In this document: piece by piece, positions 8,656 to 55,415 of the stretch
Layout of the letters: each line of letters opens with the position of its first letter
Numbering within the stretch: the first letter of the stretch is position 1
Virus record (IMG/VR): IMGVR_UViG_3300020046_006452
Coordinates: 21,296-85,295 of that record
DNA length: 64,000 nucleotides
Source of the DNA: a virus
Taxonomy: Duplodnaviria > Heunggongvirae > Uroviricota > Caudoviricetes
Strand: one strand, 5' to 3'
The notes under the pieces: model-generated
Databases searched by the model: none
Told to the model about the DNA's origin: nothing
The model's input: only the letters and a program-made list of their open reading frames with translations
Translations under genes and position numbers: made by a program

Positions 8656-9067
8656 CTACACTCAAGGTTAGTATTATGGATCTGGTGTCAAACATATTGC
8701 CCTTAAGGCTGATTACTAGGGTAAGCCCAACTGTATTTGAGTCTTGGGGGATGAGCTCTAATTTATTGATTGCAATGTAGGGTAGCCAGTAAGCAAAGGC
8801 TTCCCTGATCCTAGAGTCCATCTTGGTCAAGAGGCTGGGTGTGACCTGTTCAAACAATGACTTACGTAAATCGCAGCCGAACTCGGGATGCATTAAGCGC
8901 TCACCTCTATCTGTTAGCAGTAGATTGCGCGCGTTTGCACTTGCCTGATCTAGGGTGGTATAGTTCAGTTTTAAGGTAGTGCCAGTGGATCCAATCATAG
9001 GTAGATCAATCCCCACAGCAACATCTAGCTCTAGGTCAATGGGATTGATTCGGATTGGAGTTGCCAC
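8648..9067 (-). CDS. baseplate wedge protein gp25/GPW-like (lysozyme-like fold)
   Basis: 139 aa; LLLTDRGERLMHPEFGCDL matches the (T/R)xxGERxMxPxFG signature of the GPW/gp25 family. Confidence 0.6.
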   Translation of the reverse strand: MATPIRINPIDLELDVAVGIDLPMIGSTGTTLKLNYTTLDQASANARNLLLTDRGERLMHPEFGCDLRKSLFEQVTPSLLTKMDSRIREAFAYWLPYIAINKLELIPQDSNTVGLTLVISLKGNMFDTRSIILTLSVDG

Positions 9068-15431: not shown

Positions 15432-16334
15432 CTAAGGTTGTAGTGAATTGACAATGCCCTCAGCAGCTAGCTTAGTCTTATCCTCCACTCCCAAAACATG
15501 GGACCAGGTCTTCATCCTCGAGGCGCACGATAGATTAACCTCAACTCGTTGACTTGAGCACATATAAATAGAGCTATCATCCGTGTTTGGATCTTCCTTG
15601 ATGAACATCTGGTTCGCGCTAGTTGTGTTGTTACGATCAACTCGGAGTACTAAAATGGGATCACCAGACATTCCCGGGGCCCCTGTACCAACTGCCGACC
15701 ATGGAGCATCTGTAACTGCAGAGGTTGATCCAAATCGTACCGTGTTACCAAAGCGACCTTGAAGGATGAAGTCCCCCTCATAAGGCCTAAGTTGCTTGAA
15801 GATCTTGACTTGGTTATCTGAGTCCTTGAACATGGACAAGTCTCCCACCTTCTGATCGAATCGTGCTTGGGCTTCTTGCACAGGAACAACTCTACCCTTT
15901 TCTAGTACCTTTTCATTGTGGCCCATGAAAGGGTGACTGTTGTAGGTAATGTTCATCTGGGATGAAACTACCATACTGTAGAACGGGATCGAGCTCAGTT
16001 GGTCCTTATCAGCACTCCTACGTTGCTGATCTCCAATTGCCGAGTAGATCATCACCTGCTCTCCTGGCAGCGGATACCGACTAATCGATCGATCTAGGGG
16101 ATAGGCAATGGTAGTGACCTCATTCTCGAAGTTCCTACCGTAGGCCTCACCAATACCAACTAGACGAAATCGGATTACTCCTATGTCACTAGGATCTTTG
16201 TATAGTGGTGAACTCTCATCCATACACACATCCAGAACCTGGGCTGGAGAGACAGCTAGCTGCTGTCTTGCACTCGCATTACCATTAGGGGCCCCAGATT
16301 TGTAGTTATCCCCTAGGCCTAGGAACAAGCTCAT
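15432..16334 (-). CDS. tail/baseplate structural protein
   Basis: 300 aa ORF in tail block. Confidence 0.45.
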   Translation of the reverse strand: MSLFLGLGDNYKSGAPNGNASARQQLAVSPAQVLDVCMDESSPLYKDPSDIGVIRFRLVGIGEAYGRNFENEVTTIAYPLDRSISRYPLPGEQVMIYSAIGDQQRRSADKDQLSSIPFYSMVVSSQMNITYNSHPFMGHNEKVLEKGRVVPVQEAQARFDQKVGDLSMFKDSDNQVKIFKQLRPYEGDFILQGRFGNTVRFGSTSAVTDAPWSAVGTGAPGMSGDPILVLRVDRNNTTSANQMFIKEDPNTDDSSIYMCSSQRVEVNLSCASRMKTWSHVLGVEDKTKLAAEGIVNSLQP

Positions 16335-16705
16335 TTAGAGCGATCCATTAGGTCTTGGGCCTCGTGTAGCAGCTGATCTCTCTCGGTCTTATCTTGAGCA
16401 AGAAGCTGCTGCCTCTCCTCCTCAGTTAGCCCCAATTCCTCGGTTTTTCCCCGATCTGCGGTGACCAACAAGCGTTGGATGATGCCTGTCAGCCTAACTA
16501 AGTTATCGTCGTTCTTAACCGATATTTCGAGGTACTCTTTGATCAAAGGGACCATCATGGAAGCTTCACTTAGGGTATTGACCATGCCACTAAGCTGATC
16601 CACTAGACCCTTGATTTGGCTCTCCTTCTTCTTAGTGTTGGTGTACACATCCCTCATCAAATCTGCGAAGGACTTGTCATCAAATAGTAGCGAATCTTTG
16701 TCCAT
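16331..16705 (-). CDS. hypothetical coiled-coil protein (first gene of tail block)
   Basis: 124 aa; preceded by 145-bp intergenic region. Confidence 0.4.
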   Translation of the reverse strand: MDKDSLLFDDKSFADLMRDVYTNTKKKESQIKGLVDQLSGMVNTLSEASMMVPLIKEYLEISVKNDDNLVRLTGIIQRLLVTADRGKTEELGLTEEERQQLLAQDKTERDQLLHEAQDLMDRSK

Positions 16706-20280: not shown

Positions 20281-20592
20281 CTAAACGATCCTAGTCCTCC
20301 GAGTGCCAGGCATAGGTATGATCCTCTTAATCCTGTACCTCTCCACCAACTTCTTGTCATTTAGCTCCTCGATTGACAAGATGCGAGCTCGGTCCGATTT
20401 GGTTATGTTGTACTGGATATTGGTACCTTCGTAGAACACTGGCCCTCGGTAAGGTTGGTTGTCGATCCTACGCTGGCCAACAAACGATCTGAACCAGTTG
20501 GCTGTCACCCTATTCCACACCCCTGGAAGGTACTCAATCTCCAAGTTGGATGCTGTGTTAAACGGATGCTCCAGTTTGAGCAATCTCGACAT
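20281..20592 (-). CDS. hypothetical protein
   Basis: 103 aa ORF. Confidence 0.4.
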   Translation of the reverse strand: MSRLLKLEHPFNTASNLEIEYLPGVWNRVTANWFRSFVGQRRIDNQPYRGPVFYEGTNIQYNITKSDRARILSIEELNDKKLVERYRIKRIIPMPGTRRTRIV

Positions 20593-20710
20593 TGCTAAAG
20601 GCGGATGTTTTTAGCGGTGAAATCTTGGATTTGCCACGTTTTTTTGGCTTCACGGGTAGGAGACACCAGGTTGGAGCGATCGTCGCTTAAAACCAGGATT
20701 TTGGATCTAT

Positions 20711-20757
20711 AACCTGTTGATTCTCAGGGAGTTACCGTAATCACCTGAGAATCAAGG
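20711..20757 (-). terminator. 11-bp inverted repeat TTGATTCTCAG / CTGAGAATCAA with 16-nt loop at the 3' end of the metallopeptidase gene
   Basis: perfect stem seen directly; no U-tract. Confidence 0.3.
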
Positions 20758-21262
20758 AGTTAGTGCCGTGCAGTGCATGGAACACTTTAACATCCAAGTC
20801 TACTTGCTGAGGGGTAGCTCCAATCCAATCTAACACGTATGGTTTGATCCTCTCGGTCTTCAGATTGTAGAACAGCCTATTCTGAATGATGTGCATCCAA
20901 ACATAGCGCTTGGCATCCTCCTGATAGGCTAGGTCGACTATACCGTGGAATTTTTCAGCTCGTTTAATTGCCCACTGCTCAGCCACATACTCATCTAGAT
21001 AAGAGAACACTCGCTCTCCCATACTAATGTGTCCTATCTCATGCAAGCACACCATGAAGCTCCAAGTGTCAACTGGTATAGGGAGAAGTACCTGGCGAGT
21101 GTCTCGAAAGGCCTCATAACGACAGCTATCAGGATCCCATGGCATCCACTTACGCACTCGAACCCCTACTAGGTTGAGGTGCTCTCGGACATAGCCTACG
21201 TAGGGTTGTGTTGCTTCTGCTTGTTTTAGGAGTGCCTTAGTGCTCTTCATTGAAACAAACAT
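20741..21262 (-). CDS. putative zinc metallopeptidase (HExxH)
   Basis: 173 aa; MVCLHEIGHISMGE contains an HExxH motif. Confidence 0.45.
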   Translation of the reverse strand: MFVSMKSTKALLKQAEATQPYVGYVREHLNLVGVRVRKWMPWDPDSCRYEAFRDTRQVLLPIPVDTWSFMVCLHEIGHISMGERVFSYLDEYVAEQWAIKRAEKFHGIVDLAYQEDAKRYVWMHIIQNRLFYNLKTERIKPYVLDWIGATPQQVDLDVKVFHALHGTNSLILR

Positions 21263-26878: not shown

Positions 26879-27104
26879 AGTGTGACAAACATAACCCTTC
26901 TAATGCGTACCAACCAACTCTTCGGGCAGGGGGTAAGAGAGGCTAGTGAGGGAGGAGGAGGACTATGGGAGGGGAGGGCAGACACCCACGCAGTGGGGCC
27001 CAGAGTGTATGGTCTCTATACAAGAAAAAAATGGCATCGGAAAGAAAATAGGCCTCACCCGCCCTCCATACAGCCCTACCCCATGCATTTTCACGTATCT
27101 ATCA

Positions 27105-27201
27105 GGGGGGTACCCCCCCCTATATCCCCCCTAAAAACACGCTAAAACAGGGGGGGACCCCCCCGCGATAACACCCCCTATTAACAGGGGGGGGGCCCCC
27201 C
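27105..27201. repeat. three G(6-9)/C(6-8) homopolymer palindromes spaced about 40 bp apart in a 360-bp intergenic region
   Basis: GGGGGGTACCCCCCCC (27105-27120), GGGGGGGACCCCCCC (27150-27164), GGGGGGGGGCCCCCC (27187-27201); C5-7 runs between. Confidence 0.6.
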
Positions 27202-27239
27202 TGCTAGGAAGCCCCCCTCATACCCCCTCTGTTACCCCT

Positions 27240-29574: not shown

Positions 29575-29690
29575 TAGGGCAAAGGTCCCCCTTCTTGGAG
29601 GCTTGGGCAACAGTAAGTTATGAACCGATAGCTAACTCCCTGAGGCTCAGGGGGAATAAAGTTAATCCGCTGAGCCTCAGTAAGTTAGTC
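29575..29690 (-). promoter_or_regulatory. early promoter/operator cassette upstream of the vWA gene: GGTTCATAAC element, -33 TGTTG, -7 TAnnTTTG-like box, two CTGAG-N-CTCAG palindromes
   Basis: minus-strand read: CCCTGAGCCTCAG ... CCCTGAGGCTCAGGG ... GGTTCATAACTTACTGTTGCC-N19-GGACCTTTGCCC ... ATG. Confidence 0.5.
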
Positions 29691-29778
29691 AAAATCCCGG
29701 TTCTAAGGCACGATCGTCCTCTGGCTGCACCCTGATGCCACCCACAAGGAGATCGTGCCGCAGATCCAAGATTTCACG
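29691..29778 (-). terminator. conserved about 88-nt stem-loop element, copy 1 (3' of the 106-aa gene)
   Basis: AAATCCCGGTTCTAAG-GCACGATCGTCCTC...GGAGATCGTGCC-GCAGATCCAAGATTT; 13-bp stem with one bulge. Confidence 0.45.
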
Positions 29779-29779
29779 C

Positions 29780-30100
29780 CTAATCATCCCCTCCACGCTC
29801 CTTTGCAATACTGCGGAAGATCTTCTCGTCACAGAACGCAGCATTGGACTTTCGGATCATGTTGGAGAACCACGCACAGTACTTTGCTTGCTCCCAAGCC
29901 TCTCGTACTGAGCGGGCTGGAGGTATTAGGAGATCAGGGTCCACAATAGGCTGGCCTTTGCCATCGATCAATGCATACCACATCTGATCTCCTACTTGCC
30001 TTGCTTGCACGTGCGCACCTGGGGCTCGCTTGTCAACGTACTTCTTCAGCTTAGCGAATTCCTTCTGCTGGGGGGTCATTGTTGCTTGCTTCGTCATCAT
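29780..30100 (-). CDS. hypothetical protein between the vWA and AAA+ genes
   Basis: 106 aa. Confidence 0.4.
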   Translation of the reverse strand: MMTKQATMTPQQKEFAKLKKYVDKRAPGAHVQARQVGDQMWYALIDGKGQPIVDPDLLIPPARSVREAWEQAKYCAWFSNMIRKSNAAFCDEKIFRSIAKERGGDD

Positions 30101-32044: not shown

Positions 32045-32190
32045 GAAGGCAAAGATCCCCCAACTACAACTAAAGTCAACACCAATTTTCCTCTACTCTT
32101 GGAAGCCTACGGATAAACACCTGAGCCCCAGGAGGATATGTAACCCCCTGAGGCTCAGTCACTTAGTTAACTCGCTGAGGCTCAGCTAGA
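32045..32190 (-). promoter_or_regulatory. early promoter/operator cassette (leaderless; -7 box abuts ATG) with two CTGAGGCTCAG palindromes
   Basis: minus strand: ...TGTTG-N19-GATCTTTGCCTTC-ATG; palindromes at about 32147-32165 and 32173-32190. Confidence 0.5.
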
Positions 32191-32763: not shown

Positions 32764-33072
32764 TTATGAACCGATCCGGGTGATCACGATATCGATGTTG
32801 GTAGTGTGGTAGAACCCCGAGGTGTAGACTTTCCACTTCAGTTGATAGCCAGCCACACGCAAGCCCTGGGCGATTCGGTCTTCGAGGTTGAACAGTACGG
32901 AGGCCTTCACCCCCCGGTAGACCCCCCAGAACTTCAGCCTGCGGCCATTAGCGCGGGGTTCGGAGAACGTGCGGTATTCCCCCAGTGATCCATTGCTACG
33001 AAGCTCGATCGCGATGTTGCGCATGATCTTGATCTCCTGCTTATACAGGGGGCAGTCCTTGTTGTGTTTCAT
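32764..33072 (-). CDS. hypothetical early protein
   Basis: 102 aa with own promoter cassette. Confidence 0.4.
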   Translation of the reverse strand: MKHNKDCPLYKQEIKIMRNIAIELRSNGSLGEYRTFSEPRANGRRLKFWGVYRGVKASVLFNLEDRIAQGLRVAGYQLKWKVYTSGFYHTTNIDIVITRIGS

Positions 33073-33165
33073 GAAGGCAAAGATACGGTGTTTTGGCGTT
33101 GAGGCAACAGTTCCAAGGTGAAAAAGTTATGAACCGGTGCTAACTCCCTCAGGCCCAGTGGGTTG
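33073..33165 (-). promoter_or_regulatory. early promoter cassette: GGTTCATAAC, TGTTG-N19-TATCTTTGCCTTC directly abutting ATG, plus degenerate palindrome
   Basis: GCACCGGTTCATAACTTTTTCACCTTGGAACTGTTGCCTCAACGCCAAAACACCGTATCTTTGCCTTCATG. Confidence 0.55.
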
Positions 33166-33399
33166 CATGTAATACGTTGAGTTCCAGTGAGTTCGGGTGT
33201 AGTGCAGGAACTTGGGCACTTTGGCGTTGTCATAGAACGGATCTACCCCCTGGCGCCTCATCTCGCGCGCCAATTGTGGGTGCTCCACCACAAGGGTGTT
33301 CCAAAGGTGCTGTCCCCAGCGGATTCCCTGGCGTTCATAGTGGTCCTTCCAGGTGCAATACGCGGAGGTGAGCCATTGATGTCGTGTTATAGTAGGCAT
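33127..33399 (-). CDS. hypothetical early protein
   Basis: 90 aa. Confidence 0.4.
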   Translation of the reverse strand: MPTITRHQWLTSAYCTWKDHYERQGIRWGQHLWNTLVVEHPQLAREMRRQGVDPFYDNAKVPKFLHYTRTHWNSTYYMQPTGPEGVSTGS

Positions 33400-33404
33400 G
33401 TTGT

Positions 33405-33644
33405 TCAGCAGGTTTCAGGGTGGGGGAACGAACAGAAGTCGCCGTTGGTGCGGGTTACCTGGGCAAGGTACCACTCTCCCCCCTCTTCTTGCTCAACTTT
33501 GGGGACCATAGCCTCGCCTATGTTGCGCAGGCTACGCAGGTCACCATCTTCACACCGCAGCACTCGGGTACGGCCATCGTAGACATTGCGGTACTTGAGG
33601 GTGGAGGGGTACATCGGTTCGGTTTGCAGTTGTGGGCTTATCAT
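33405..33644 (-). CDS. hypothetical protein
   Basis: 79 aa. Confidence 0.35.
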   Translation of the reverse strand: MISPQLQTEPMYPSTLKYRNVYDGRTRVLRCEDGDLRSLRNIGEAMVPKVEQEEGGEWYLAQVTRTNGDFCSFPHPETC

Positions 33645-33647
33645 GTG

Positions 33648-33884
33648 TTACTGGGGGAGTTTGTGTCCTTGATTTGCAGCCGCTTCAAAGGCTGAGTGTA
33701 TGTGCAGGTTGTCAAACAGGTCAGGCTTCTTGCACTGATCGAGGGTCTTAAGCAGGCGTTGGATCAGCTGGGCGTCCTTCTCACGCTCCGTTTCATACAG
33801 GTCGCGCAGTTCGGAAAGGCTCCAAGCGTAGCCCTGCATTTCGGCAAGCCGATCATCGCTGCAAAGGAGGTTAAGGGTGGCCAT
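33648..33884 (-). CDS. hypothetical early protein
   Basis: 78 aa; promoter box 25 nt upstream. Confidence 0.4.
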   Translation of the reverse strand: MATLNLLCSDDRLAEMQGYAWSLSELRDLYETEREKDAQLIQRLLKTLDQCKKPDLFDNLHIHSAFEAAANQGHKLPQ

Positions 33885-34084
33885 GGGATCTCGTTGTGTT
33901 TGTATAAGGCAAAGATACGGTGCTATAGACTAAAGTCAACACCCAAAGTTCGGCATTCGTGGAATCCTAGCTGTAACTTGCTGAGACTGAGGGGGAAAGT
34001 TTTTTCTCTCTGATTGCCAGGCAGTTACGTAGTTGCCCTGAGGATCAGGGGTTTAGCTGTAACTCCCTGAGGCTCAGCACTTAA
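33885..34084 (-). promoter_or_regulatory. early promoter cassette with three CTGAG-N-CTCAG-type palindromes
   Basis: TATCTTTGCC box at about 33897-33915; palindromes about 34002-34012, 34035-34050, 34060-34078. Confidence 0.45.
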
Positions 34085-34175
34085 GGCAAAAAACGGGCTA
34101 TAAACGACGATCGCCCCTTCCCTGGTCTCTGACACCAGGTGGGAGGCGATCGTGCCTTACAATCGAGATTTGAGC
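34085..34175 (-). terminator. conserved stem-loop element, copy 2 (nested hairpin CCTGGT/ACCAGG inside a CGACGATCGCCCC/GGGAGGCGATCGTG stem)
   Basis: same flanks as copies 1 and 3: ...ACGACGATCG...GGCGATCGTGCC...AGATTT. Confidence 0.45.
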
Positions 34176-34181
34176 GGTAGT

Positions 34182-34652
34182 CTACGCTTTTCGCAGCTCC
34201 TTAATAGCATCAGCACATGCCACGATCTCCTTCTCATGGATCCAGCCCATCTTGGCCCCATACAAGTCCAGTACCTTGACCCCAGTCTTGTGCACCCTCA
34301 ACGTACGTACACAGCGGCCGCTGAGCACGGCATCACTATCGATATCGATGTACTTGGGTGCACCCACATAAGCACTCAGCCATTGCAGGGCTTGTTGGAC
34401 CGTTAGTGTAACCCCCGGGGGGGTGGTGGAGATAGAGTCATCCATCTTCTCACCATCCCACACCATGCTGTATATAGGGAATGTGTTGATGTACGTAGGG
34501 AATTGGAAGTGAGGTACCTTACACGCCTCGATCACTGCCTTCAGCATGTCGAAGGTGTCTCGATCATTGGTACTGAGCTTGACGTGCCACTTAGTGGTCT
34601 GATTGGGGATGCTTGTGTTGTTCATCGTGTTGTTTGTGTTTGTTGCGTTCAT
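34182..34652 (-). CDS. hypothetical early protein
   Basis: 156 aa; promoter box abuts ATG. Confidence 0.45.
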   Translation of the reverse strand: MNATNTNNTMNNTSIPNQTTKWHVKLSTNDRDTFDMLKAVIEACKVPHFQFPTYINTFPIYSMVWDGEKMDDSISTTPPGVTLTVQQALQWLSAYVGAPKYIDIDSDAVLSGRCVRTLRVHKTGVKVLDLYGAKMGWIHEKEIVACADAIKELRKA

Positions 34653-34754
34653 GAAGGCAAAGATACGCTAACTGAGTTCAAAGTCAACGACAACTTTCCC
34701 CTACTCTTGGAATCCCAGGTGTAACTTGCTGGGGGTCAGGGGGTTAACTGCCCT

Positions 34755-34788
34755 AAAAAAGGTTACCCCCGCCGTTGACGGGGGGGGG
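34755..34788 (-). terminator. rho-independent terminator (minus strand): GC hairpin CCCCCCCCGTCAACGGCGGGGG followed by T6
   Basis: hairpin 34765-34788, A6 at 34755-34760 on plus strand; downstream of the SPFH gene, upstream of the next promoter. Confidence 0.5.
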
Positions 34789-35088
34789 TTAGCCGGTTCA
34801 TAACTTTATTTTGGTTTGAGTGTGTGATTTCTATAGCTTTTTGTGATCGGGTGTATATGTATGGGATCCGGTTCCTCCCCCCTCCCTCCACTTATCGAGT
34901 GTCTTGTTTTTACCAAGGTGTCTACTATAGAGCTACCTCGTAACAGCGACTAATTTACCTACCTGGGTGTCTTACCTTACGCCGAGTGCAGTTAAGTATA
35001 CCCCCACGACTCAAAGCACTAAAAAAAGGAGGGAGGTCATCTTGTGACCCCCCCCCCTTTGTTATTGTACCTATGCTAACACAAGAGA

Positions 35089-42381: not shown

Positions 42382-42993
42382 TCATGGCCTGGGTGTGAGT
42401 TGTTCGATGAGCTTCAGTGCTGCGCCGTAGCGGGCCACCTCTTCCCGTGTGTAGCCTTCCATGCGCCCGACCGCTTCGTATTTGTCCAGCCATCCGGCAA
42501 GCGTGTTGACGTGGCAACCGATGGAGATCACATCGTTGTCGGCCTTGGTGATCGTGTGCTTGCCAAGGCATATCGTCCAAGGGGTGCGTTCAACCCGCGC
42601 ATCCCCGGACACCCGCGCATTCCCGGACACCAGCGCATTCCCGGACACCTGCGCATCCCCGTACACCTGCGCATTCCCGTACACCCGCGCATTCCCGGAC
42701 ACCCGCGCATCCCCGTACACCTGCGCATCCCCGTACACCCGCGCATTCCCGGACACCAGCGCATTCCCGGACACCAGCGCATTCCCGGACACCCGCGCAT
42801 CCCCGTACACCTGCGCATTCCCGTACACCTGCGCATTCCCGTACACCCGCGCATTCCCGGACACTAGTCCTTCGATGCGGGCTGTTTTGTCTACCCTGTC
42901 TGGGTGTTGGACCCATCCGCCACCGTTGGCGTGTTGGAAAAGCTCCGTGTCCTTCATCCACGGGTATTTGGCATTGAGTTCTTCGCGTGTCAT
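42382..42993 (-). CDS. hexapeptide-repeat (left-handed beta-helix-like) protein, about 15 x [G-N/D-A-R/Q/L-V-Y/S]
   Basis: repeat block encoded by near-perfect 18-bp tandem DNA repeats at 42590-42860; unique N- and C-terminal segments; ATG at 42993 (MTREEL) gives ATGA overlap with upstream stop. Confidence 0.55.
42590..42860. repeat. about 15 tandem copies of an 18-bp repeat GCGCAT(T/C)CCCG(G/T)ACACC(C/A/T) (plus-strand reading)
   Basis: near-perfect periodicity of 18 bp; encodes the hexapeptide repeats on the minus strand; explains the open frames on both strands. Confidence 0.7.
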
Positions 42994-43298
42994 GTTGTTG
43001 GTGTGATATTGTGCTTGGTGGCTGCGAGGGAGAGGGCGGCATCGCCATCTATGTATGGGCATTCGTCATAAGTCCTTGCGTATGCACAGGCGCCATCCAG
43101 CGCATCCACCAGCGCCTGAACCGTCGCCCGCAGGCTCTCCAGTTCGGCGTGTGTGGTCTTGCGGTCGGCTTCGTACAGGTCGCGAACCATCACTGCCCCC
43201 GCCACATATCCATGTCCTTTGTCACGGATCAATGGACCGTAAAGGAATGCCTCGCCTATTGCGTCATCGCTCACCAGTAGCTCAAGTGTTGCGCTCAT
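42990..43298 (-). CDS. hypothetical protein
   Basis: 102 aa. Confidence 0.4.
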
Positions 43299-43698: not shown

Positions 43699-43917
43699 CT
43701 AGCGGTACAGTACTACGAAGTCTCCAAACTCTCGATCAAACACCTCCACTAGGTGCTCGTAGTCCCCAGCTTGCATCTCCTCTATGATTGCCTTAGGGTC
43801 CTTGTCCAGTTGCTTAGCAAGCACCTGAGCGTAACCCATTAGAGCAAAAGCGTTGCCATCAGGTCCAGTGAGGTCAATCTCAATTGGTCCTTGGCGGGGT
43901 TGTTTGTTCTTGATCAT
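43699..43917 (-). CDS. hypothetical protein
   Basis: 72 aa. Confidence 0.4.
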   Translation of the reverse strand: MIKNKQPRQGPIEIDLTGPDGNAFALMGYAQVLAKQLDKDPKAIIEEMQAGDYEHLVEVFDREFGDFVVLYR

Positions 43918-44270
43918 TTGCTCAGGGCCTTTGCTTTGTTTACCTTGGGCTTTGGCATCTCCGAGATCAGCTTGTGATAGAACTGATCCTTACTTAGGGG
44001 TTGACCAAACCTACCAACATCATGGTAATGGCCCCACATATATTCAAAGTTGTCTTTGACTATCTCTTCACTGAGAAAGAGACACCCTGCGTACTGATAC
44101 ACCACTCCCAACTCCAGAGCCAATTGGACATCAAGAGCATTGTTCGTGGTTGGCTCAGGCTCAATATCTAAAGCTAGATCCGGTACCTGGTTTGAGACGT
44201 GTCCCTTGGCCAGGATACACTCCCGATTGAGGTTCAGTGCTACCTCAGCGATTTGCTGCTTTGTCATCAT
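43914..44270 (-). CDS. hypothetical protein
   Basis: start moved to MMTKQQ; the first 33 codons of the listed ORF overlie a tRNA-like element. Confidence 0.4.
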   Translation of the reverse strand: MMTKQQIAEVALNLNRECILAKGHVSNQVPDLALDIEPEPTTNNALDVQLALELGVVYQYAGCLFLSEEIVKDNFEYMWGHYHDVGRFGQPLSKDQFYHKLISEMPKPKVNKAKALSK

Positions 44271-44271
44271 G

Positions 44272-44367
44272 TGAACAAGGTAGGACTCGAACCTACACGC
44301 ACCCTGTGCTTCGCTACCCGAGCTTGCTTCCCTCGGACGATGTGGCTCCCAGTTACACCACTTGCTC
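44272..44367 (-). tRNA. tRNA-like element (about 96 nt) with canonical T-arm GTAGGTTCGAGTCCTAC and GAGCAAG/CTTGTTC acceptor; anticodon region does not fold canonically (9-nt loop)
   Basis: manual fold; acceptor and T-arm clear, D-arm GTGT/ACAT; possibly a type-II or degenerate tRNA. Confidence 0.3.
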
Positions 44368-44416
44368 ATAACGTTATTGACAAATATACAACTTTAACTG
44401 ACTACCTTGCAACCAC

Positions 44417-45142
44417 CTATAACAAGCTGAAGTTTTTACATTCGTCAAGAGAGCGAAGAAAGATTATGTTTGAGTAAGTTGACTTCAAGATCTCGATCTT
44501 ATGTAATTGATTGGCATATGCTGCTGGGTTCTTTGGATCTAGATACAAGTTGTGATCCTCCAAGTAAAAGTCAGGAAAGTAATTATGCTCCAGACCGCTC
44601 TTGTCAACCCACTTGAGTGGAGATGGTCTGCTCCACTTTATGCCCATTTCATCTAATCGGATAGCTAATGCATGCTCCCACGTACTGTCCAGCAACACTC
44701 CTTTGTACTCGATAATGTTTCTGCGAAGTCTTCTATGATCTGATCTCAGGGCCGCGTCGCGCATCCTTTCTATTGACTCAGACTTATGCTTCCTTCCCAG
44801 CTTGTAGCTGTAGTCCACATGAGCGTATTTGCCGTCCGCATGGGCCTTTTTTATAGCGCAACTTCGCTTTTCTATCACTTCCGGCTTCTTATAGGCTGCT
44901 CTACGGTGTGAAAGGAACTCCTCATACTCAACTCGTTTGGGATTTGATTTACACCACCTTGAGTGGTTCATTATCTCAGAGGAAGTAGACACACTCAAAC
45001 TCTTCCACGTAAGCTGACAGTGCTTACAACAGGTTGACTTCCCTCTAGTCAAAGGAGGTTGGCCTGTACAGCAGGCGAAATGCCTTTCGAGGTTGTTATT
45101 AGTGATACTAGCCTTACATCTATCGCACGTGGACTGTCTCAT
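44417..45142 (-). CDS. Zn-finger protein, possible homing endonuclease
   Basis: 241 aa; N-terminal Cys clusters; C-terminal TWEHALAIRLDEMGIKW...YFPDFYLEDHNLYLDPK nuclease-like; sits inside the tRNA region. Confidence 0.35.
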   Translation of the reverse strand: MRQSTCDRCKASITNNNLERHFACCTGQPPLTRGKSTCCKHCQLTWKSLSVSTSSEIMNHSRWCKSNPKRVEYEEFLSHRRAAYKKPEVIEKRSCAIKKAHADGKYAHVDYSYKLGRKHKSESIERMRDAALRSDHRRLRRNIIEYKGVLLDSTWEHALAIRLDEMGIKWSRPSPLKWVDKSGLEHNYFPDFYLEDHNLYLDPKNPAAYANQLHKIEILKSTYSNIIFLRSLDECKNFSLL

Positions 45143-45195
45143 TACCTTTTCTCATAAGTATGGTGAAGGGGATAAAACAGCGATGTTCGGTTTAG

Positions 45196-45268
45196 TAGTC
45201 CTGACAAGATTCGAACTTGTGACCTAGGTGTTAGAAGCACCTTGCTCTGTCCACTGAGCTACAGGACC
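45196..45268 (-). tRNA. tRNA-Arg(TCT): tRNA-Arg (anticodon TCT)
   Basis: GGTCCTG-TA-GCTCAGTGGACAGAGC-A-AGGTG/CTTCTAA/CACCT-AGGTC-ACAAGTTCGAATCTTGT-CAGGACT-A. Confidence 0.7.
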
Positions 45269-45697
45269 AATTTGGAGGACCATGCGCGGGAACGATCCGG
45301 CTGATTTTGTGCTGTCCACAGGGGCTACCTGCAACCTTTCACGAACCATCACCCATGTACTGCAATCTGCTTTTGCTTTTCGTCACGGACTAGCGAAGTC
45401 CATCTCGATCAGCACAGACGCCCACATTGTGAAAGGCCCAAAATACGAGAAGTGAGGTACTTGGTAGGCTGCACCTATATAGCACTATCTATCTCCTTCA
45501 ATGGGGAGCAGCGGCCACAGACCCTTTACCTAGTAGTACTTCGACTCAAGTACTCCACTTCTAACATCATCTAACAGTACTTAATGTGTTGGTGGTGGTC
45601 ATTCCGGGGACTCGGGGACACTAAGGCGTCCATTCCCTCCGATGTGTTTACCTATTGCCACACACCAACACACTAAATCAAAGAACACTACTACCTC

Positions 45698-46117
45698 TCA
45701 TTCGGTAGAGGAGTGTGGCTGACTTGCTGGGGCCGTCTTGTCCCAGCGCTGAAGGCGCCCACAGTACTTACTACCACACTCCTCCCACCTAACCACCGGC
45801 TTCTGCTCACCTATCGCCTGCGAGGGCTTCAGGTATCCGTGGTCGCGGGCGTAGCGCAGTCCGCGCTCAAAGAATGCGCGGGCCATGTCGATTGCGCCGT
45901 CTTGGTCAAGAGCAAGTCCGACATGGGAATCCGCAGGAATGCTGTCCATCGCGGCGCGTCCCACCTCCTCATCGCTCAACTCCATGCCCTGCGCCTCCTG
46001 TGCTTCGGCTTGGGCGATGCAGTCATCCACCAAGTTCATCACGTTAGGCGTGTCCGATTCCTCAGACATCAGTACATCGCGCAGGTCGCGCAGCCTTTGG
46101 CTCAGTGTGGTGCTCAT
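45698..46117 (-). CDS. hypothetical protein
   Basis: 139 aa. Confidence 0.4.
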   Translation of the reverse strand: MSTTLSQRLRDLRDVLMSEESDTPNVMNLVDDCIAQAEAQEAQGMELSDEEVGRAAMDSIPADSHVGLALDQDGAIDMARAFFERGLRYARDHGYLKPSQAIGEQKPVVRWEECGSKYCGRLQRWDKTAPASQPHSSTE

Positions 46118-46129
46118 CGCTGTTCGGGG

Positions 46130-46534
46130 TTAGGGGGTGGCGGGGCGGATGGCATCGCGCCAAGTCTTGATCGGAAACTCTCTGGAGTTGTCCCTGGTAC
46201 ACAGTCCGAACCTGAAATTAGAGCTTTTTATCCATGGAATGCCGTCGCGCAGTTCCAGCACCTTCGTTATGGAACCCAGTCCATCTTCGCGGGCGGCGAG
46301 ACCTCCTGTAATCACCACCCAATCCCCCACCTTCGGCACCCATGCCTCCGCTGGCGCTGATCGGGATTCGAGGGCGGTCAGGCGCTCATGCACAGGCTCT
46401 AACATCTTGCTCACGATGCGCCGGATACGCAGCTCCTCTTCTTCCATCGCAATCTTGCGCAGGTTCAATGCGCGTTCTCCCGCTGCCTTCGGGTTCGGCT
46501 TCTTCGTGGTCTTGGTGGCTGTCTTCTTGCTCAT
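46130..46534 (-). CDS. hypothetical basic protein
   Basis: 134 aa, K-rich N-terminus; long leader carrying promoter cassette. Confidence 0.4.
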   Translation of the reverse strand: MSKKTATKTTKKPNPKAAGERALNLRKIAMEEEELRIRRIVSKMLEPVHERLTALESRSAPAEAWVPKVGDWVVITGGLAAREDGLGSITKVLELRDGIPWIKSSNFRFGLCTRDNSREFPIKTWRDAIRPATP

Positions 46535-46860
46535 GGTCGGTTAAGAGTTGTTGTCGTGATGTTGGTACTCGGGCTTTCCAGGCTCTGGTCCTACTATCTA
46601 TCTTGCTTTTGATCTTCTCTTGCGATCGAGGCAAAGATAGGCTACTTTTGGTTTGTTTGCAACAGTGGTCTCGATAAGTTATGAACCGAGTTATGAACCG
46701 CTGTTGTTGTTGATTGCTTGTTGTTGCTTTTGACGAAGGCAAAGATACGGTGATCTGGCAGGCTGAGCAAACCCTTTTTGGGCTATTGTTGGAAGGCTAC
46801 CGCTAATCCCCTGAGCCTCAGAGAGTTAGCTAACTACCTAGGTATCAGCAAGTTAGCTAC
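46535..46860 (-). promoter_or_regulatory. double promoter cassette: two TATCTTTGCC boxes, tandem GTTATGAAC direct repeat, one CTGAGCCTCAG palindrome
   Basis: boxes about 46625-46640 and 46728-46746 (second lacks an adjacent ATG); GTTATGAACCGAGTTATGAACC at 46676-46699; palindrome about 46807-46822. Confidence 0.45.
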
Positions 46861-46863
46861 CTC

Positions 46864-46948
46864 AAAATCCCGGTTTTAAGCGACGATCTCCTCCTTGGTG
46901 GCACCTTGCCCCAGGCAGGAGGAGATCGTGCCGCAGATCCAGGATTTG
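46864..46948 (-). terminator. conserved stem-loop element, copy 3
   Basis: AAAATCCCGGTTTTAAG-CGACGATCTCCTCC...GGAGGAGATCGTGCC-GCAGATCCAGGATTT; 12-14-bp stem. Confidence 0.45.
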
Positions 46949-46957
46949 GCTATTGGC

Positions 46958-47443
46958 CTACTGGTTATCCAACTCGTCAAACGCGTCCACGAAGGCTTCA
47001 ACCTCAGCTCGTGGGATCCATCCAATAATGGAATGTCGACTATCATCAGATACTACCTGGACTCCAGTCTTAAATACTCGAAACTTATACCAATCCACGT
47101 GCTCACCATCCTTGCTAACCATTGTCTCGTCACTCAACCAGCCACCATTGGTCATCTGAGGTTCAATGAACTTAGGCTTGGGCGGGGTGTTGGTTTCGCG
47201 GAGGATCCGGAGTAGGTTCAACAGGCCAATGGCCCCCGCTGATCCAGATCCGCGGTGGGTCGGCCGAACCTCCACCAATCCTCCATGGGGTGCTACACTG
47301 ACGGTATAAGAGATGGCGTCTTCATCACATTGGTCGGAGATATTGAAGTTGCGGTCCTCGCATACTGCTTGGATAGCTGTGAGTACTGCCTTACCCTCAT
47401 CTCCAACGAAGAGGTGATAGTGTTTAGTTGATTCCTTCTTCAT
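46958..47443 (-). CDS. hypothetical protein
   Basis: 161 aa. Confidence 0.4.
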   Translation of the reverse strand: MKKESTKHYHLFVGDEGKAVLTAIQAVCEDRNFNISDQCDEDAISYTVSVAPHGGLVEVRPTHRGSGSAGAIGLLNLLRILRETNTPPKPKFIEPQMTNGGWLSDETMVSKDGEHVDWYKFRVFKTGVQVVSDDSRHSIIGWIPRAEVEAFVDAFDELDNQ

Positions 47444-47653
47444 TGTGTTGTGTTGTTTGATTTTAATGGGGGTTGAATTGAGCTGTTGCTTTGATTGAGA
47501 GTCGCTCAGACTTTCGGCTTTCTGGAGTGCAACCTACGTGCCTACGAGGTCCTGCACATCCAAATGTGATCAGGATGAGTAGGGCTACTGTAGCTACTCG
47601 GGTTAGTGTATTGGTCTTCATTGTTGTTGTGTTGTTTGGTTGTTATTGTTAAG

Positions 47654-47884
47654 TTATGCAACATGCTCGCTCTCGTATATGTGTTGCACTTCTTCACCTG
47701 TTAAATGGTATGGGTGTGTTCTATCGGGGTAATATTTCCACAAATAACCAACCCAACTATCGTTCATGTCTTGTAAGTTCTGTATGGGTAGTTCGTGCCA
47801 CCAATCTAAAGCACGTTGCATAACATCAGATATACCCAATTTGGGTGTTGTCTGTTTATCCCACTCTTGTTTTTCTTTACTCAT
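47654..47884 (-). CDS. hypothetical protein
   Basis: 76 aa. Confidence 0.35.
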   Translation of the reverse strand: MSKEKQEWDKQTTPKLGISDVMQRALDWWHELPIQNLQDMNDSWVGYLWKYYPDRTHPYHLTGEEVQHIYESEHVA

Positions 47885-47942
47885 TTTGTCTATAATTTAA
47901 AGTTTCTACTATTTAATCCCAAACTGGGCATATCTGTAACCG

Positions 47943-48272
47943 TTAAACGAAGTTCAAGTCGTTGACAACGATTACATCGAAGGTCATGTCTGCAGATCTC
48001 CAGTGCCAATCTAGAATGGCGGACTTGGGTGTTACTGTCTTCTTCAAAAACTGACACCACTTCACCGCCTTGGTTTTTGTACTTGCCAGTGCGATCACCT
48101 TTTCGCGGCATGGACCCTCCTGCATGATTCCCTCATTCTGAAGGGTTGATAGGTTGGTGCTGAAGGTCTTGGACTCAGGGTCCCACAGGAAGTGCCTAGT
48201 TGATAGGATCGTACTTTGGGCAGCTGTCTTACCAAAGCTGCGGCCACCTTGAGTTACAGTTAGCTTATCCAT
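47943..48272 (-). CDS. hypothetical protein
   Basis: 109 aa. Confidence 0.35.
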   Translation of the reverse strand: MDKLTVTQGGRSFGKTAAQSTILSTRHFLWDPESKTFSTNLSTLQNEGIMQEGPCREKVIALASTKTKAVKWCQFLKKTVTPKSAILDWHWRSADMTFDVIVVNDLNFV

Positions 48273-48387
48273 TTGATCACGGTGTGTATTAGTAACAGCA
48301 GAACAGTCAGCCCCAAAGACAGTAGGACAACGAGGTCCACTACTCGCTCAACTAGGCCTTCTGTTGGTTCTCGGCGTGTTGACATGC

Positions 48388-48654
48388 TTACAGTTTATGT
48401 TCGTTCTGGTCCAGGTACTCTATCTGGTCAACCAAGTCGTGATATTGAGCTAGAGTGATCACCTCTTTGAAGCTCTCTCCCTCCCATTTGATCTCAGCGA
48501 GTACACGGGTGACACGTTCTGTAGGATACCCATAAAACTTAGCATCCAAACACCCCAACAAGCAGATGATACCACCGTTAGGGACAAAGGACAGTACAGG
48601 ATGATCAGAGTCCCGGACTTCGTAGTTCTTGCTTTTCTTCTTCTTGTTTGGCAT
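48388..48654 (-). CDS. hypothetical protein
   Basis: 88 aa; TATATTTG box 4 nt upstream of ATG. Confidence 0.4.
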   Translation of the reverse strand: MPNKKKKSKNYEVRDSDHPVLSFVPNGGIICLLGCLDAKFYGYPTERVTRVLAEIKWEGESFKEVITLAQYHDLVDQIEYLDQNEHKL

Positions 48655-48758
48655 ATGTCAAATATAAGGCTGACTATGTGTACCATGCAACAACAAAGAG
48701 CCCCACCCGAAAGTGAGGCCCCATGTCTGTTTGAGAGTCCTACTCCCAACTGTAACGC

Positions 48759-49130
48759 TTACCAGCTATAGTTGCTGTAGTAGCTTGGCTTAGGAGCACT
48801 CTTGCTAGCAGCCTTCTTACCTTTCTTGGTGATCTCGTACTTGCCAGTAGCCACACGCTTCAGCTTGCCTTCGTTGGCAAGATACCTCATCGAGCGACCT
48901 ACTGAGAGGTTGAACTCAAAGTTGTCCATCTCAGTGGTGGGGATGCGCAGCCTTCGGCGAAGAACTGGATTGCTCACAGTGTCCTCTTTTGTAGCAGCAT
49001 TCAGGATACGCTCGGTCCACGGTTTACGATTACTCATACTTGTCTGTTTGTAACTTTGTTTGAAACTGTCAAACTTGCAGCTTCTCATCTTTGATGTGGG
49101 GTGAGAAGGTTTGCCCACTTTGTTGTTCAC
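48759..49130 (-). CDS. putative DNA-binding protein
   Basis: 123 aa, basic, helix-turn-helix-like region. Confidence 0.3.
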   Translation of the reverse strand: MNNKVGKPSHPTSKMRSCKFDSFKQSYKQTSMSNRKPWTERILNAATKEDTVSNPVLRRRLRIPTTEMDNFEFNLSVGRSMRYLANEGKLKRVATGKYEITKKGKKAASKSAPKPSYYSNYSW

Positions 49131-49167
49131 CTGGCCAGTGATTACATCTACAATATACGCCTTATCC

Positions 49168-49680
49168 TCACTTGAGGCAACAGCCTCTCACCATTAGGTG
49201 GATGTAGGGTTCAAAGTTATCAATGTTGTACATCACTGGAGTCCACATTATCATATAGAGGTGAGTATAGCCTAGCTCAGTTAGCTCAGCTTTAAGCTGA
49301 TCGTAATCAACTAGGTGAGGTCCACGATCTGCAGGGTTGTCATAATTGTACTGCATCTGTGTACGCAGCTTTTGAGTCTTGCTGCAAATAGCAATCTCCT
49401 CTCCCTTCCAGTTGACTAATGCACTAGGAAGCTCCATCACCTCAAACCCATCCGGTAGTGGTATTGTGTCTCTGGTGATGTTATCTGCATAGTCCTTTGT
49501 CCTCTCAAGTGCTGCAGCAAGGTTGTCCTTAGGCTTATCTACAGACCCACTCGCAGCAAGTAGCGAGGGGGCAACTGCTGCACCTACTAGCAGGGCACCG
49601 AGCTTACCTAGAAAAGATCTCCTTTCTCCGATGTTAGGTTCATCCTTATCGGATGACAGCATGTCCATTTGTGCACTCAT
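49168..49680 (-). CDS. Tat-signal secreted protein
   Basis: ERRSFLGKLGALLVGAAVAPSLLAASGS = twin-arginine motif (S/T)RRxFLK plus hydrophobic region. Confidence 0.45.
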   Translation of the reverse strand: MSAQMDMLSSDKDEPNIGERRSFLGKLGALLVGAAVAPSLLAASGSVDKPKDNLAAALERTKDYADNITRDTIPLPDGFEVMELPSALVNWKGEEIAICSKTQKLRTQMQYNYDNPADRGPHLVDYDQLKAELTELGYTHLYMIMWTPVMYNIDNFEPYIHLMVRGCCLK

Positions 49681-49698
49681 TTGATTGGGGTTTGTTAG

Positions 49699-50193
49699 TT
49701 ACTGAAAGCTGGTTTGGTAGTCACTCCATACTTGCTCTACATCAGGATCGAATAGCTTACCGAACACTGAGGGCTCATATGGCTTGTTAGTCAACCGCAT
49801 GTTAGCCTCTTCAGGAGTCCTGTCAGCCTTCTTCAAGTTGCAGCTGTAGCAGCAAGTGATTAGGTTGGTCCACGAGTTATCTCCACCTCGTGACTTAGGT
49901 AGAATGTGGTCAATAGTCAAGTGCCTAGTTGATCCGCAGTAGGTACAAGTGTGATGATCACGGTCGTAGATCCTCTTGCGGTTGACCTTCAACTTCTTCA
50001 TCATGAAGCGAACGTACTTCAGCAATCTAATGATCACTGGACGTACGTACTGCACTACCCCAGCAAGGATTGGACTGTCTTCAACAGACTTCAGTATCTC
50101 AGCCTTTCCTTTGTAAACCAACTTGAATCCGTGACGGACCGAGGTGACGTTCAATGGAGAGTAGTCTGAGTTTAGCACCAGTACTCTTTCCAT
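49699..50193 (-). CDS. HNH endonuclease
   Basis: HHTCTYCGSTRHLTIDHILPKSRGGDNSWTNLITCCYSCNLKK. Confidence 0.7.
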   Translation of the reverse strand: MERVLVLNSDYSPLNVTSVRHGFKLVYKGKAEILKSVEDSPILAGVVQYVRPVIIRLLKYVRFMMKKLKVNRKRIYDRDHHTCTYCGSTRHLTIDHILPKSRGGDNSWTNLITCCYSCNLKKADRTPEEANMRLTNKPYEPSVFGKLFDPDVEQVWSDYQTSFQ

Positions 50194-50211
50194 AATAGTA
50201 GCGGTTGATGG

Positions 50212-50544
50212 TTAGTTCTCCACCCAAACAGAGGAGCCAAGGATCATAGCCTCACCTGCAGACAGATGGGGGTACAGCTGCATGTAGTACAGAGCTCGGC
50301 ACACAACATCGGCTTGTGTTCCCAACGCAATACTGTTATCTAGTACGTCCTGAGCAACCTCACGATCGTAGGTGGTAGTTGCATTAGGCTGACGAGCTTG
50401 CCTCTGGCCATTGACTAGATCCTGAAACCAGGAACGTAGTTGAGCGATCTTGGTTGGAGGGTTAAGGCTTATAGTACTGTTGCTTTCCATACTGTAGTAA
50501 CTGTTTGATTGTGTTATCTGCGTTTCCTTGATGTAATATACCAA
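50212..50544 (-). CDS. hypothetical protein
   Basis: 110 aa; probable later start (MESNST). Confidence 0.3.
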   Translation of the reverse strand: MVYYIKETQITQSNSYYSMESNSTISLNPPTKIAQLRSWFQDLVNGQRQARQPNATTTYDREVAQDVLDNSIALGTQADVVCRALYYMQLYPHLSAGEAMILGSSVWVEN

Positions 50545-51121
50545 ATCCTCCCCGACTTTGCCACTGTGTTACGTTTTTATGGTAGTCGTCGATTAGGATC
50601 GCTGAGGGTGAGCTCAGTTGGGACTTATGCTCAGACCTCTTAAATACATAGGGCGGTGTGATTGGACCGAGGTGTTTTGTGATCCACTCTATCTTACCCT
50701 TACGGCCTGCAGTACCCTCATTAGGTGGAGCACTTAGGATGGTTGGGTTGTATAGCCTGACGTGATTCCAAATAGTTGGGCCTTCAGGTAGCCATGGCAT
50801 CTCACTCCAGAACTCTATAGGTGCATCGCTAAGCTGCTTGTGGAAGGCATCACTCCCGTGCTGCTTACGATAGGCTGAAGGGTCTAGTTGATAGTAGTCT
50901 ACCCACTGCTTAACGAAGTCTGCTAGCACTCCATCCAGGTCACAGTATACTTTGTGATCCTCCTGTATTGCTTGTATTGATCGAAGGTCATCCAGATCTC
51001 TACCACACTCACCACAAACACTTCCAGCTCGATCTAGATTACCATAATCTAAGTACCACATACAACCTAGACAAAAGTTACTGATGAGAGGGTTGCTGTA
51101 GTTAAGGAGAGGAGATTTCAT
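50462..51121 (-). CDS. 5'(3')-deoxyribonucleotidase-like HAD-superfamily hydrolase
   Basis: VYCDLDGVLADF (DxDGVLADF motif of the NT5C family), ILIDDY motif III. Confidence 0.55.
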   Translation of the reverse strand: MKSPLLNYSNPLISNFCLGCMWYLDYGNLDRAGSVCGECGRDLDDLRSIQAIQEDHKVYCDLDGVLADFVKQWVDYYQLDPSAYRKQHGSDAFHKQLSDAPIEFWSEMPWLPEGPTIWNHVRLYNPTILSAPPNEGTAGRKGKIEWITKHLGPITPPYVFKRSEHKSQLSSPSAILIDDYHKNVTQWQSRGGFGILHQGNADNTIKQLLQYGKQQYYKP

Positions 51122-51618
51122 AGGTCAAGGCTACCTGACATCAGGCGCTGCTTTTTGAAGATGTCCCCATTAGCCCAGTGCTCCACCAACCAACCCTCCT
51201 TGTCCATGTAGATCATAGGAAAGCCTTTGTCCCAAGTATCTTTCTTGACCTGTGCAGCGAAGTCTTTAGTGAATTGATCTGAACGCAGATATCCAGCTAG
51301 GGCATCCTCATCTAGATCTTCCTTCTGGTGTAGAGGTTTGATGGTCTGGTCTGGATGGCTCTTGATTCTATTAGCTGCCCATTGCATGTCCTGTTGGTCA
51401 GGAGGAGGATCAATACCCTTTAGTACGTGGATGTAAGCTACTAGGTAGTTGACTAGACCTAAGGTACCTGGAACCCCATAGGAGTCCCCGTCGACCCACT
51501 TATCGTTGAGCACCAAGCGAGCATACTCCTCCACCCTTTGATCGGTGTCACAAGTGTCTTCTAGCAAGTGCTTGTAGCTCTTGAAGTAGTCCTTGTTGGG
51601 GTCTTTAGTTATGGGCAT
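51118..51618 (-). CDS. hypothetical protein
   Basis: 166 aa. Confidence 0.4.
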   Translation of the reverse strand: MPITKDPNKDYFKSYKHLLEDTCDTDQRVEEYARLVLNDKWVDGDSYGVPGTLGLVNYLVAYIHVLKGIDPPPDQQDMQWAANRIKSHPDQTIKPLHQKEDLDEDALAGYLRSDQFTKDFAAQVKKDTWDKGFPMIYMDKEGWLVEHWANGDIFKKQRLMSGSLDL

Positions 51619-51772
51619 TTGGCAACTTGGATGTAGTGGCGGGTGGGGACATCTCTGTTACCAGTGTCCTCCCAGGTTATGATGTAGAACCTATAGCTCT
51701 CAGTATCGAAGTATACTTGGTTGTCGCGATCAGCGATCATTCCTTTTGGCAGTCCTTCCATGTTAGTTGTGA

Positions 51773-52267: not shown

Positions 52268-52452
52268 GCAGCAGCTGTAGCTGCAACAACTAGGAGAGCA
52301 ATCACAATCACTACCCTACCAGCTAGTACAGTTAGCTTAGCTGAGTCTAGGTCGGCATCATCGGCTCGGCCCGTCTTTATTAGCACCACTATGGCAGCTA
52401 GTAAGATCAAGGCTATTAGTGCACCTACTACTATCCAACCAATGTTGATCAT
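52243..52452 (-). CDS. two-TM small membrane protein (holin-like topology)
   Basis: 69 aa. Confidence 0.35.
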   Translation of the reverse strand: MINIGWIVVGALIALILLAAIVVLIKTGRADDADLDSAKLTVLAGRVVIVIALLVVAATAAAWITLTSV

Positions 52453-53904: not shown

Positions 53905-53943
53905 GCCAGCAAGATAGGCCTACCTTAGTGTACCTTGCAACTC

Positions 53944-54468: not shown

Positions 54469-54488
54469 TTGGTGACTATACGCAATTA

Positions 54489-55209: not shown

Positions 55210-55272
55210 ATTGATGCCTTATGTGTTGAGCCAAAGATACACCCTACCTAGTGTACTTAGCAACTTTACTAT

Positions 55273-55348: not shown

Positions 55349-55415
55349 ATTTACCTGTCTTTCCAGGTTGTCAACCAGTGCACCTGTGGCCGTCGCCTAG
55401 CGTGTTGGGTTTGTC

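Follow-up and report, generated by a model that had tools for sequence, protein, structure and literature searches.

The 64,000-nt stretch of DNA analysed here, hereafter called the window, is part of a large uncultured phage with a genome of at least ~166 kb, which is seen in part only. JGI metagenome contigs encode identical proteins, and one of these contigs has a length of 132,550 bp. The genes and long ORFs of the window are all found on the minus strand, as are 19–20 tRNA genes located between 44 and 64 kb. There are no nucleotide relatives among the GenBank phages; at the protein level, the neighbours are recognized by a CobS-like AAA ATPase and a CobT/vWA-like protein, which are common to huge phages and a Microcystis phage.

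Some 20 promoters of a single form (GTTGC or GTTGAC, 19–21 nt, TA(T/C)(C/A)TTTG) can be recognized on the minus strand, at sites between 25767 and 62488 (e.g., 33917, 38589, 43652, and 48666). Such a promoter cassette often has TTCATAACTTAnTG in front, and an A/C-rich leader lacking a Shine–Dalgarno motif follows it. TAnnTTTG is the −7 box of the Bacteroidota sigma-A (PMC9723704). A Shine–Dalgarno-like motif is present in just 6 of the 98 predicted genes, and the scarcity of this motif fits the Bacteroidota (PMC6847099). Judging from these promoter and leader features only, the host is probably a member of the Bacteroidota, and the Bacteroidota setting proposed in the initial annotation fits them.

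Arrays of one to four imperfect palindromes of ~25 bp (AACTnnCTGAGnCTCAGnnAGTT) are located upstream of promoters, and are conserved across phages in which the CobT protein is only ~40% identical. In addition to the arrays of the window (Table 1), they are found in the related contigs L003 (605–720), L004 (6840–6920), L005 (8770–8860), L013 (247–320 and 2585–2640), and L014 (9905–10000). Their appearance is that of operator sites bound by a dimeric phage regulator, or of small tandem hairpins. Three palindromes of another kind, built from G and C tracts and located near 27.1 kb (Table 1), recall the poly-G/poly-C stem-loops of the promoter-early stem-loop (PeSL) elements of T4-type phages.

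Table 1. Positions of the hairpin copies, neighbouring genes, and regulatory features in the window (position 1 is its first letter).
Feature	Position	Strand	Description
Older family member (20.6-kb copy)	20606–20714	+	Hairpin polarity opposite to c1–c3; inner stem degenerate; 38.6 bits on the plus strand
Palindrome array	20710–20762		
G6–9/C6–9 palindromes	27099–27207		Three, GGGGGGTACCCCCCC and similar; just 3' of CobT-like gene
Promoter downstream of c1	29580–29615	−	GTTGCC-N-GACCTTTG; CobT/vWA-like gene, ATG ~29545
Palindromes from c1 to promoter	29631–29688		Two units (CTAACTccCTGAGgCTCAG / CTGAGcCTCAGtaAGTTAG); families D10 and D13; inverted repeat I5
Copy c1	29686–29780	−	36-bp imperfect hairpin, paired bases 29775–29691; U-tract 29694–29691; 5 nt after TAG stop of gene 29780–30100; −48.5 kcal/mol, z −5.7, covariance model 102.6 bits
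Gene upstream of c1	29780–30100	−	106 aa, no known family
Palindrome array	32121–32189		
Promoter downstream of c2	33910–33945	−	TTGACT-N16-TATCTTTG; gene 33648–33884
Palindromes from c2 to promoter	33972–34081		Four units, same type as after c1
Copy c2	34081–34177	−	~30-bp hairpin; U6 (34093–34088) directly after closing C-G pair; 10 nt after TAG stop of gene 34182–34652; −37.0 kcal/mol, z −3.9
Gene upstream of c2	34182–34652	−	156 aa; weak paralogue of gene before c3 (E 2e-4)
Palindrome array	34720–34743		
Canonical intrinsic terminator	34766–34784	−	G-rich stem and U7 or U-rich tail
Canonical intrinsic terminator	~35040–35088	−	G-rich stem and U7 or U-rich tail
Second promoter after c3	~46632–46665		Ahead of gene 46130–46534
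First promoter downstream of c3	46740–46775	−	TTTGCT-N-TATCTTTG
Palindromes from c3 to promoter	46800–46856		Two units
Copy c3	46857–46953	−	32-bp hairpin; U-tract 46867–46864; 10 nt after TAG stop of gene 46958–47443; −49.7 kcal/mol, z −5.9; identical in contigs L006–L009
Gene upstream of c3	46958–47443	−	161 aa, ORFan
Canonical intrinsic terminator	48690–48730	−	G-rich stem and U7 or U-rich tail

Three gene ends of the window carry a long hairpin (c1–c3). The initial annotation had placed three copies of a structured element, with shared flanks and a shared stem, at 29691–29778, 34085–34175, and 46864–46948; these positions are correct, and the copies form one repeat family (D6) with 63–76% identity over 86 nt. 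A 24-nt right flank is found twice and the frame ACGATC...GATCGT three times, where shuffled sequences lead one to expect 0.00 and 0.03 occurrences, respectively. As inverted repeats (I1, I2, and I7), c1–c3 are the most prominent of the 64 kb.

As the minus strand is the gene strand, the originally read string has to be reverse-complemented to give the relevant RNA. In the gene sense, it consists of AAAUCyUGGAUCUGCGGCACGAUC, a variable apex, and GAUCGUssyUUAnAACCGGGAUUUUG, and the terminal U-tract takes the form GGGAUUUUG, or CCCGUUUUUUG. Positions A7 and A9, the CACGATC/GATCGT core, and T87–T90 are invariant in all six distinct hairpin copies known from the window and its relatives (alignment A6). 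The elements had been described as having no U-tract, which holds for the non-transcribed strand only; T87–T90 is an invariant U-tract on the transcribed strand. The four U residues of c1 and c3 (AUUUUG) can pair with the upstream A-tract.

Only a few 1-nt bulges interrupt the helix over its 28–36 bp, and RNA folding, which had been proposed as a check, shows each copy to be far more stable than its shuffles (z −3.9 to −5.9). The gene-sense RNA is more stable than the antisense RNA in 6/6 copies, and there are 15 G-U pairs versus 4 in four copies; this strand asymmetry is suggestive, with the qualification that the copies are not independent and that base composition may account for part of it. 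Folded by itself, the variable apical part is little better than shuffles (z −0.6 to −2.0) and therefore lends no independent support to structural selection.

Differences within the stem had also been taken as covariation pointing to selection for structure. Compensatory changes do exist, but they are few and not significant when compared with shuffles. With four sequences, both sides change in 2 of 28 pairs, which is equalled by 34 of 500 shuffles, and with the six distinct sequences they change in 5 of 32 pairs, equalled by 67 of 500; these six are all the distinct hairpin sequences available. In the fixed register, 82–93% of the sequence-by-pair cells are paired, versus 34–54% when the partners are slid by one to three columns. 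The helix is thus real, and the structure is supported by thermodynamics, by the register controls, and by its conservation in other phages.

The position that had been assigned to the copies, after a gene and before a promoter cassette, is borne out at c1–c3 on the minus strand. The order is hairpin, palindromes, and promoter at c1, c2, and c3, as well as at both copies of the related contig L013 (L013-A and L013-B). The promoters behind the hairpins are of the form TTG-N19–21-TAnnTTTG, that is, of the Bacteroidota type, and the L003 orthologue of the promoter downstream of c1 reads GATCTTTG. Only 3 of the ~20 promoter cassettes possess a hairpin. No single gene family accompanies the hairpins: weak paralogues precede c2 and c3, but the genes before c1 and L013-A are unrelated.

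All three upstream genes end in TAG (29780–29782, 34182–34184, and 46958–46960), which is the least used stop codon of the window (17 of the 98 predicted genes), and at the 20.6-kb copy a TAG lies 5 nt before AAATC. L013-A follows TAA instead; c1 is out of frame with its upstream gene, and none of the 19–20 tRNAs of the window is a suppressor, so read-through or recoding of TAG was rejected and the preference remains a minor, unexplained bias. A small peptide was likewise rejected. One frame is open through c1–c3, but the differences between c1 and its L003 orthologue are almost all non-synonymous, and the frame of c1 again does not match that of the gene before it.

Counting three copies was too few. 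A covariance model built from the copies finds one more member in the window, a plus-strand match at 20614–20709 that belongs to a degenerate copy in the opposite orientation (20606–20714), and further members are present in relatives; no other was detected in the 10 kb past the left end of the window. L003, in which the CobT-like protein is 71% identical, contains orthologues of c1 (4674–4770) and c2 (513–609). The c2 orthologue is identical. At c1, the 54 nt of the basal arms are unchanged, although the flanking DNA is 83–90% identical, and 10 of the ~33 apical positions differ.

More distant relatives (~40% identity) differ in whether the site is occupied. In L013, the site orthologous to c1 carries a hairpin (2485–2581; −40.5 kcal/mol, z −5.7), and a second copy, L013-A (150–246), is found upstream of a DUF6011 gene; this second copy has a c2-like core and a replaced 5' outer arm, with the 3' arm and U-tract kept at ~13 nt from the remaining stem. 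In L004, L005, and L014 the c1 site is empty, and the stop codon runs straight into the palindrome. Altogether, six distinct hairpin copies at no fewer than four loci in three phages are all co-oriented with transcription.

Small-gene indels distinguish the window from L003 at 33885–33650, at ~33063, and at 31590–31420, and each of them borders a promoter cassette. The region at 33067–33650 of the window is highly divergent from L003 (~60–79% identical), with flanks that are 94–96% identical.

The 20.6-kb copy should be considered separately. It has a palindrome pair on one side and the ATG of gene 20281–20592 on the other, and its polarity is antisense to the genes. Orthologous sequence is found in L004 (6920–7027), L005 (8859–8968), and L014 (9996–10103), and also in L015, in each case with a palindrome array before it and the ATG of the orthologous gene immediately downstream. 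This copy and its orthologues fold no better than shuffles (z −0.2 to −1.4); what is conserved is the primary sequence, namely T(T/A)TAAGCG(A/T)CGATC, TGGTGTC, GTGTCAAATCC, and an A-rich leader. A recent inverted insertion followed by decay can be dismissed, as the same sequence occupies the orthologous site in L004, L005, and L014. Its conservation at orthologous loci makes the family older than the gene-end hairpins of the window.

Our preferred reading, to which we give about an even chance, is that the hairpins are extra-long intrinsic terminators or 3'-end-protecting hairpins, and form the terminator half of modular terminator-operator-promoter cassettes. Most likely, they stop or cap transcripts. 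The transcribed strand carries a stable, G+C-rich hairpin (−37 to −49.7 kcal/mol) at the 3' end of a transcription unit, 5–10 nt after the stop codon and co-oriented in 6/6 copies, and hairpin-plus-U7 terminators of the canonical kind occupy the equivalent place at other junctions (near 35.05, 34.78, and 48.7 kb). The gene-end position, the uniform orientation, the A-tract and U-tract round a G+C-rich helix, and the canonical terminators elsewhere therefore fit an intrinsic terminator, and the U-tract on the transcribed strand brings the element nearer to a canonical one than to a U-less 'special' one. The canonical examples also imply that the phage uses ordinary terminators beside the long hairpins.

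Read in this way, the elements would be clade-specific, long, imperfect RNA hairpins encoded on the minus strand and transcribed as the 3' tail of early-region genes. The upstream A-tract, G+C-rich helix, and invariant U-tract would act together as a Rho-independent terminator for the host RNA polymerase, and the same hairpin may block 3' exonucleases and so protect the 3' end of the upstream mRNA. It would insulate the upstream unit from the next cassette, which has its own operator-like palindromes and predicted sigma-A promoter. Hairpin, palindromes, and promoter would thus make up a modular intergenic cassette functionally like a PeSL, with a repeated sequence that may also supply homology for the shuffling of small genes. 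Both termination or stabilization and the role in recombination are what we infer from the arrangement just described.

Several observations count against a terminator. Terminator stems average 7–9 bp, and one of 15 bp is already considered 'extraordinary' (PMC10325885), so that the 30–36-bp stems found here far exceed the typical case. The U-tract has only 4–6 nt, versus the 7–9 nt of a typical U-rich tract immediately 3' of the stem; it is short in c1 and c3, where it can also pair with the upstream A-tract, and a consensus terminator scan (at least 5 T in 8, loop of at most 8) called no copy. The lack of significance of the covariation weighs on the same side. The 20.6-kb copy, moreover, is antisense to the genes and is kept mainly at the sequence level, and the 3' arm of L013-A, kept without its 5' partner, hints at a sequence-specific role of the arm. 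These last two observations keep a sequence-specific role, at the protein or DNA level, alive. Nothing apart from the extreme stem length and the conserved sequence of the arms might suggest more than a plain terminator.

Termination can go together with a long stem, as is illustrated by TerR of plasmid pLS20, where a transcription unit ends with a long imperfect hairpin, rich in G+C and set between an A-tract and a U-tract, and where a 15-bp stem, beyond the norm in length, gives resistance to antitermination (PMC10325885). The likeness has its limits, since the stem of TerR is half as long as those described here, or less (15 versus 30–36 bp), and the U-tract of the latter is 4–6 nt. The window revealed no antitermination system.

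The main rival is control of processing or stability, because a helix of 30–36 bp is an ideal substrate for RNase III. The hairpins would be sites for a double-strand-specific endoribonuclease of host (RNase III) or phage origin, as in T7, SP82, and lambda sib; the long helix of read-through transcripts would be cut, and the hairpin left over would set the half-life of the upstream mRNA. We consider this unlikely on balance. The RNase III sites of the T7 and SP82 early mRNAs and of lambda sib are conserved long hairpins with small internal loops between early genes, and the copies described here are also a family of long hairpins in an early-gene region. Each has more than the ~20 bp that the enzyme needs, is much longer than terminators, and has basal arms that are conserved in sequence beneath a variable apex, much like the R-sites of T7, which are reportedly conserved (a finding said to be that of Dunn and Studier in 1983). 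The known sites differ in being located inside polycistronic transcripts, with no promoter after each and without a conserved U-tract. Here, a promoter of its own follows each copy, which requires no polycistronic precursor, and the invariant U-tract and A-tract play no part in RNase III recognition. Of the functions first suggested for the element, termination and processing or stability stay in the lead, and a free-standing small RNA has gained no specific support.

Mobility without an RNA function offers another way to account for the repeats, namely a selfish or structural DNA palindrome (REPIN- or MITE-like, or a recombination linker) spread by transposition or gene conversion. REPIN and REP sequences also have inverted conserved arms with a spacer, form a hairpin of ~90 nt, and are extragenic at the 3' ends of genes (PMC3116915, PMC3337134), and the arms of ~27 nt round a variable spacer of ~35 nt reproduce the REPIN layout (PMC3337134). 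Patchy occupancy, with the c1 site filled in the window, L003, and L013 and empty in L004, L005, and L014, would be expected of such an element, as would one oppositely oriented copy and mosaic breakpoints at cassettes, and it needs no significant covariation. REPINs, however, are chromosomal, RAYT-dependent, and present in tens to hundreds of copies in both orientations (PMC3116915, PMC3337134), whereas this phage has 3–4 copies, in one orientation, with no RAYT seen and no bacterial relatives. Only three intact copies and one old one are found in ~74 kb, the intact ones all have one orientation relative to transcription, and the opposite one is an old orthologous locus rather than a recent insertion. 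Inspection of the borders revealed no consistent target-site duplication, and the Pfam annotations of the called genes round the loci, which cover part of the genome, include no transposase, RAYT, or recombinase. Scanned with a pattern, 185,579 bacterial genomes yielded 39 chance-level matches versus an estimated ~48 expected, none of which passed the model. A REPIN- or MITE-like selfish element is therefore disfavoured, and we rate this explanation as improbable.

It is similarly doubtful that the elements form a directional, sequence-specific module of this clade. In such a module, a dedicated factor (a phage nuclease, a regulator that binds DNA, or a protein of termination or antitermination) would read the conserved arms and not just respond to hairpin stability, and the hairpins would have arisen by inverted copying of the conserved leader of the late operon at 20.6 kb, which would couple the shut-off or processing of early transcripts to that locus.

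A little less probable again is a regulatory site that acts at the DNA level, either as inverted half-sites for a phage protein or as a promoter-like motif; copied in reverse from the leader upstream of gene 20281–20592, it could drive antisense transcription into early genes. The plus-strand arm AAAATCCyGGTTyTAAGssACGATCG does match the gene-sense motif that precedes this gene both in the window and in L004, L005, and L014, at sites that have not kept the hairpin itself, and the module order of palindromes and then element is the same at all loci. The 3' arm of L013-A, which persists with no pairing partner, would also suit a protein site. The motif occurs in the gene sense just once in the 64 kb, however, which does not make it a general promoter class, and it has no recognizable promoter consensus. 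A protein site would need neither a U-tract nor the more than 30 bp of pairing that the intact copies hold, and the gene-sense RNA is the more stable of the two strands.

Single-stranded DNA hairpins that depend on replication direction, and serve for instance to prime or initiate it, would explain the flipped 20.6-kb copy and agree with the change of orientation between 20.6 and 29.7 kb, the strand-asymmetric folding, and the G/C-tract palindromes at 27.1–27.2 kb between the two groups, but this is very improbable, given that the GC skew shows no switch in this interval, that no replication genes or iterons specific to the sites were seen, and that the tight coupling to stop codons and promoters would go unexplained.

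Other candidates were set aside on the basis of database searches. At the gathering threshold, Rfam recognizes only tRNAs in the window, and permissive scans of the loci gave chance-level miRNA and leader matches (E ≥ 0.3), so neither a tRNA-like element nor any known RNA family was matched. Searches with five DNA patterns, with a protein seed, and with BLAST detected no homologue among the GenBank phages, in IMG/VR, or in the JGI metagenome contigs; a single DNA-pattern match failed the model test. A host-derived repeat was rejected because two pattern scans of bacterial genomes gave no members. A link to cyanobacterial HIP1 through GCGATCGC was also dropped, since this sequence is not enriched (1 found versus 0.8 expected).

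The sequence family is new, and the kind of element is a known one, that is, a terminator-type hairpin in a modular phage regulatory cassette. The closest parallel to the preferred reading, an extra-long terminator within such a cassette, is offered by the PeSLs, which both terminate and promote transcription in reporter tests (PMC2839356, PMC4122927). As with PeSLs, we find a repeated intergenic cassette that combines a stem-loop with a host-type early promoter, located between small, poorly conserved genes, with gene indels between close relatives at the cassettes. The likeness is functional only, as the sequences are not similar (a search of 50,697 phage records gave no nucleotide match). 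Furthermore, the promoter is of the TAnnTTTG type and not TTGACA/TATAAT, the hairpin has three to four times the length, and a palindrome array separates hairpin and promoter.

If this reading is correct, a clade of phages that probably infect Bacteroidota would build its early region from insulated cassettes, each made up of a terminator, operators, a promoter, and a small gene, and would have reached the cassette logic of T4-type phages with unrelated sequences. Such cassettes would offer portable candidate terminators and promoters for a phylum with poorly charted transcription signals, as well as a concrete case of the shuffling of small phage genes.

Some minor features of the window are recorded here for the annotator. 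Contig L002 matches positions 16280–16400 of the window at 8899–9019 and joins window position ~21454 straight to ~16280, which suggests a deletion variant or an assembly join with ~5 kb gone, including the 20.6-kb locus. GATC occurs 513 times in the whole window versus ~246 expected from base composition. ARAGORN places 19 genes in the tRNA array (44271–63879); a degenerate tRNA-like sequence at 62848–62920 is detected by Rfam alone, and a 97-nt 'tRNA-Pro' at 44271–44367 overlaps ORF 43914–44369. Lastly, an 18-nt unit is repeated ~15 times in tandem at 42539–42918, inside the minus-strand ORF 42382–43062, implying a hexapeptide-repeat protein.
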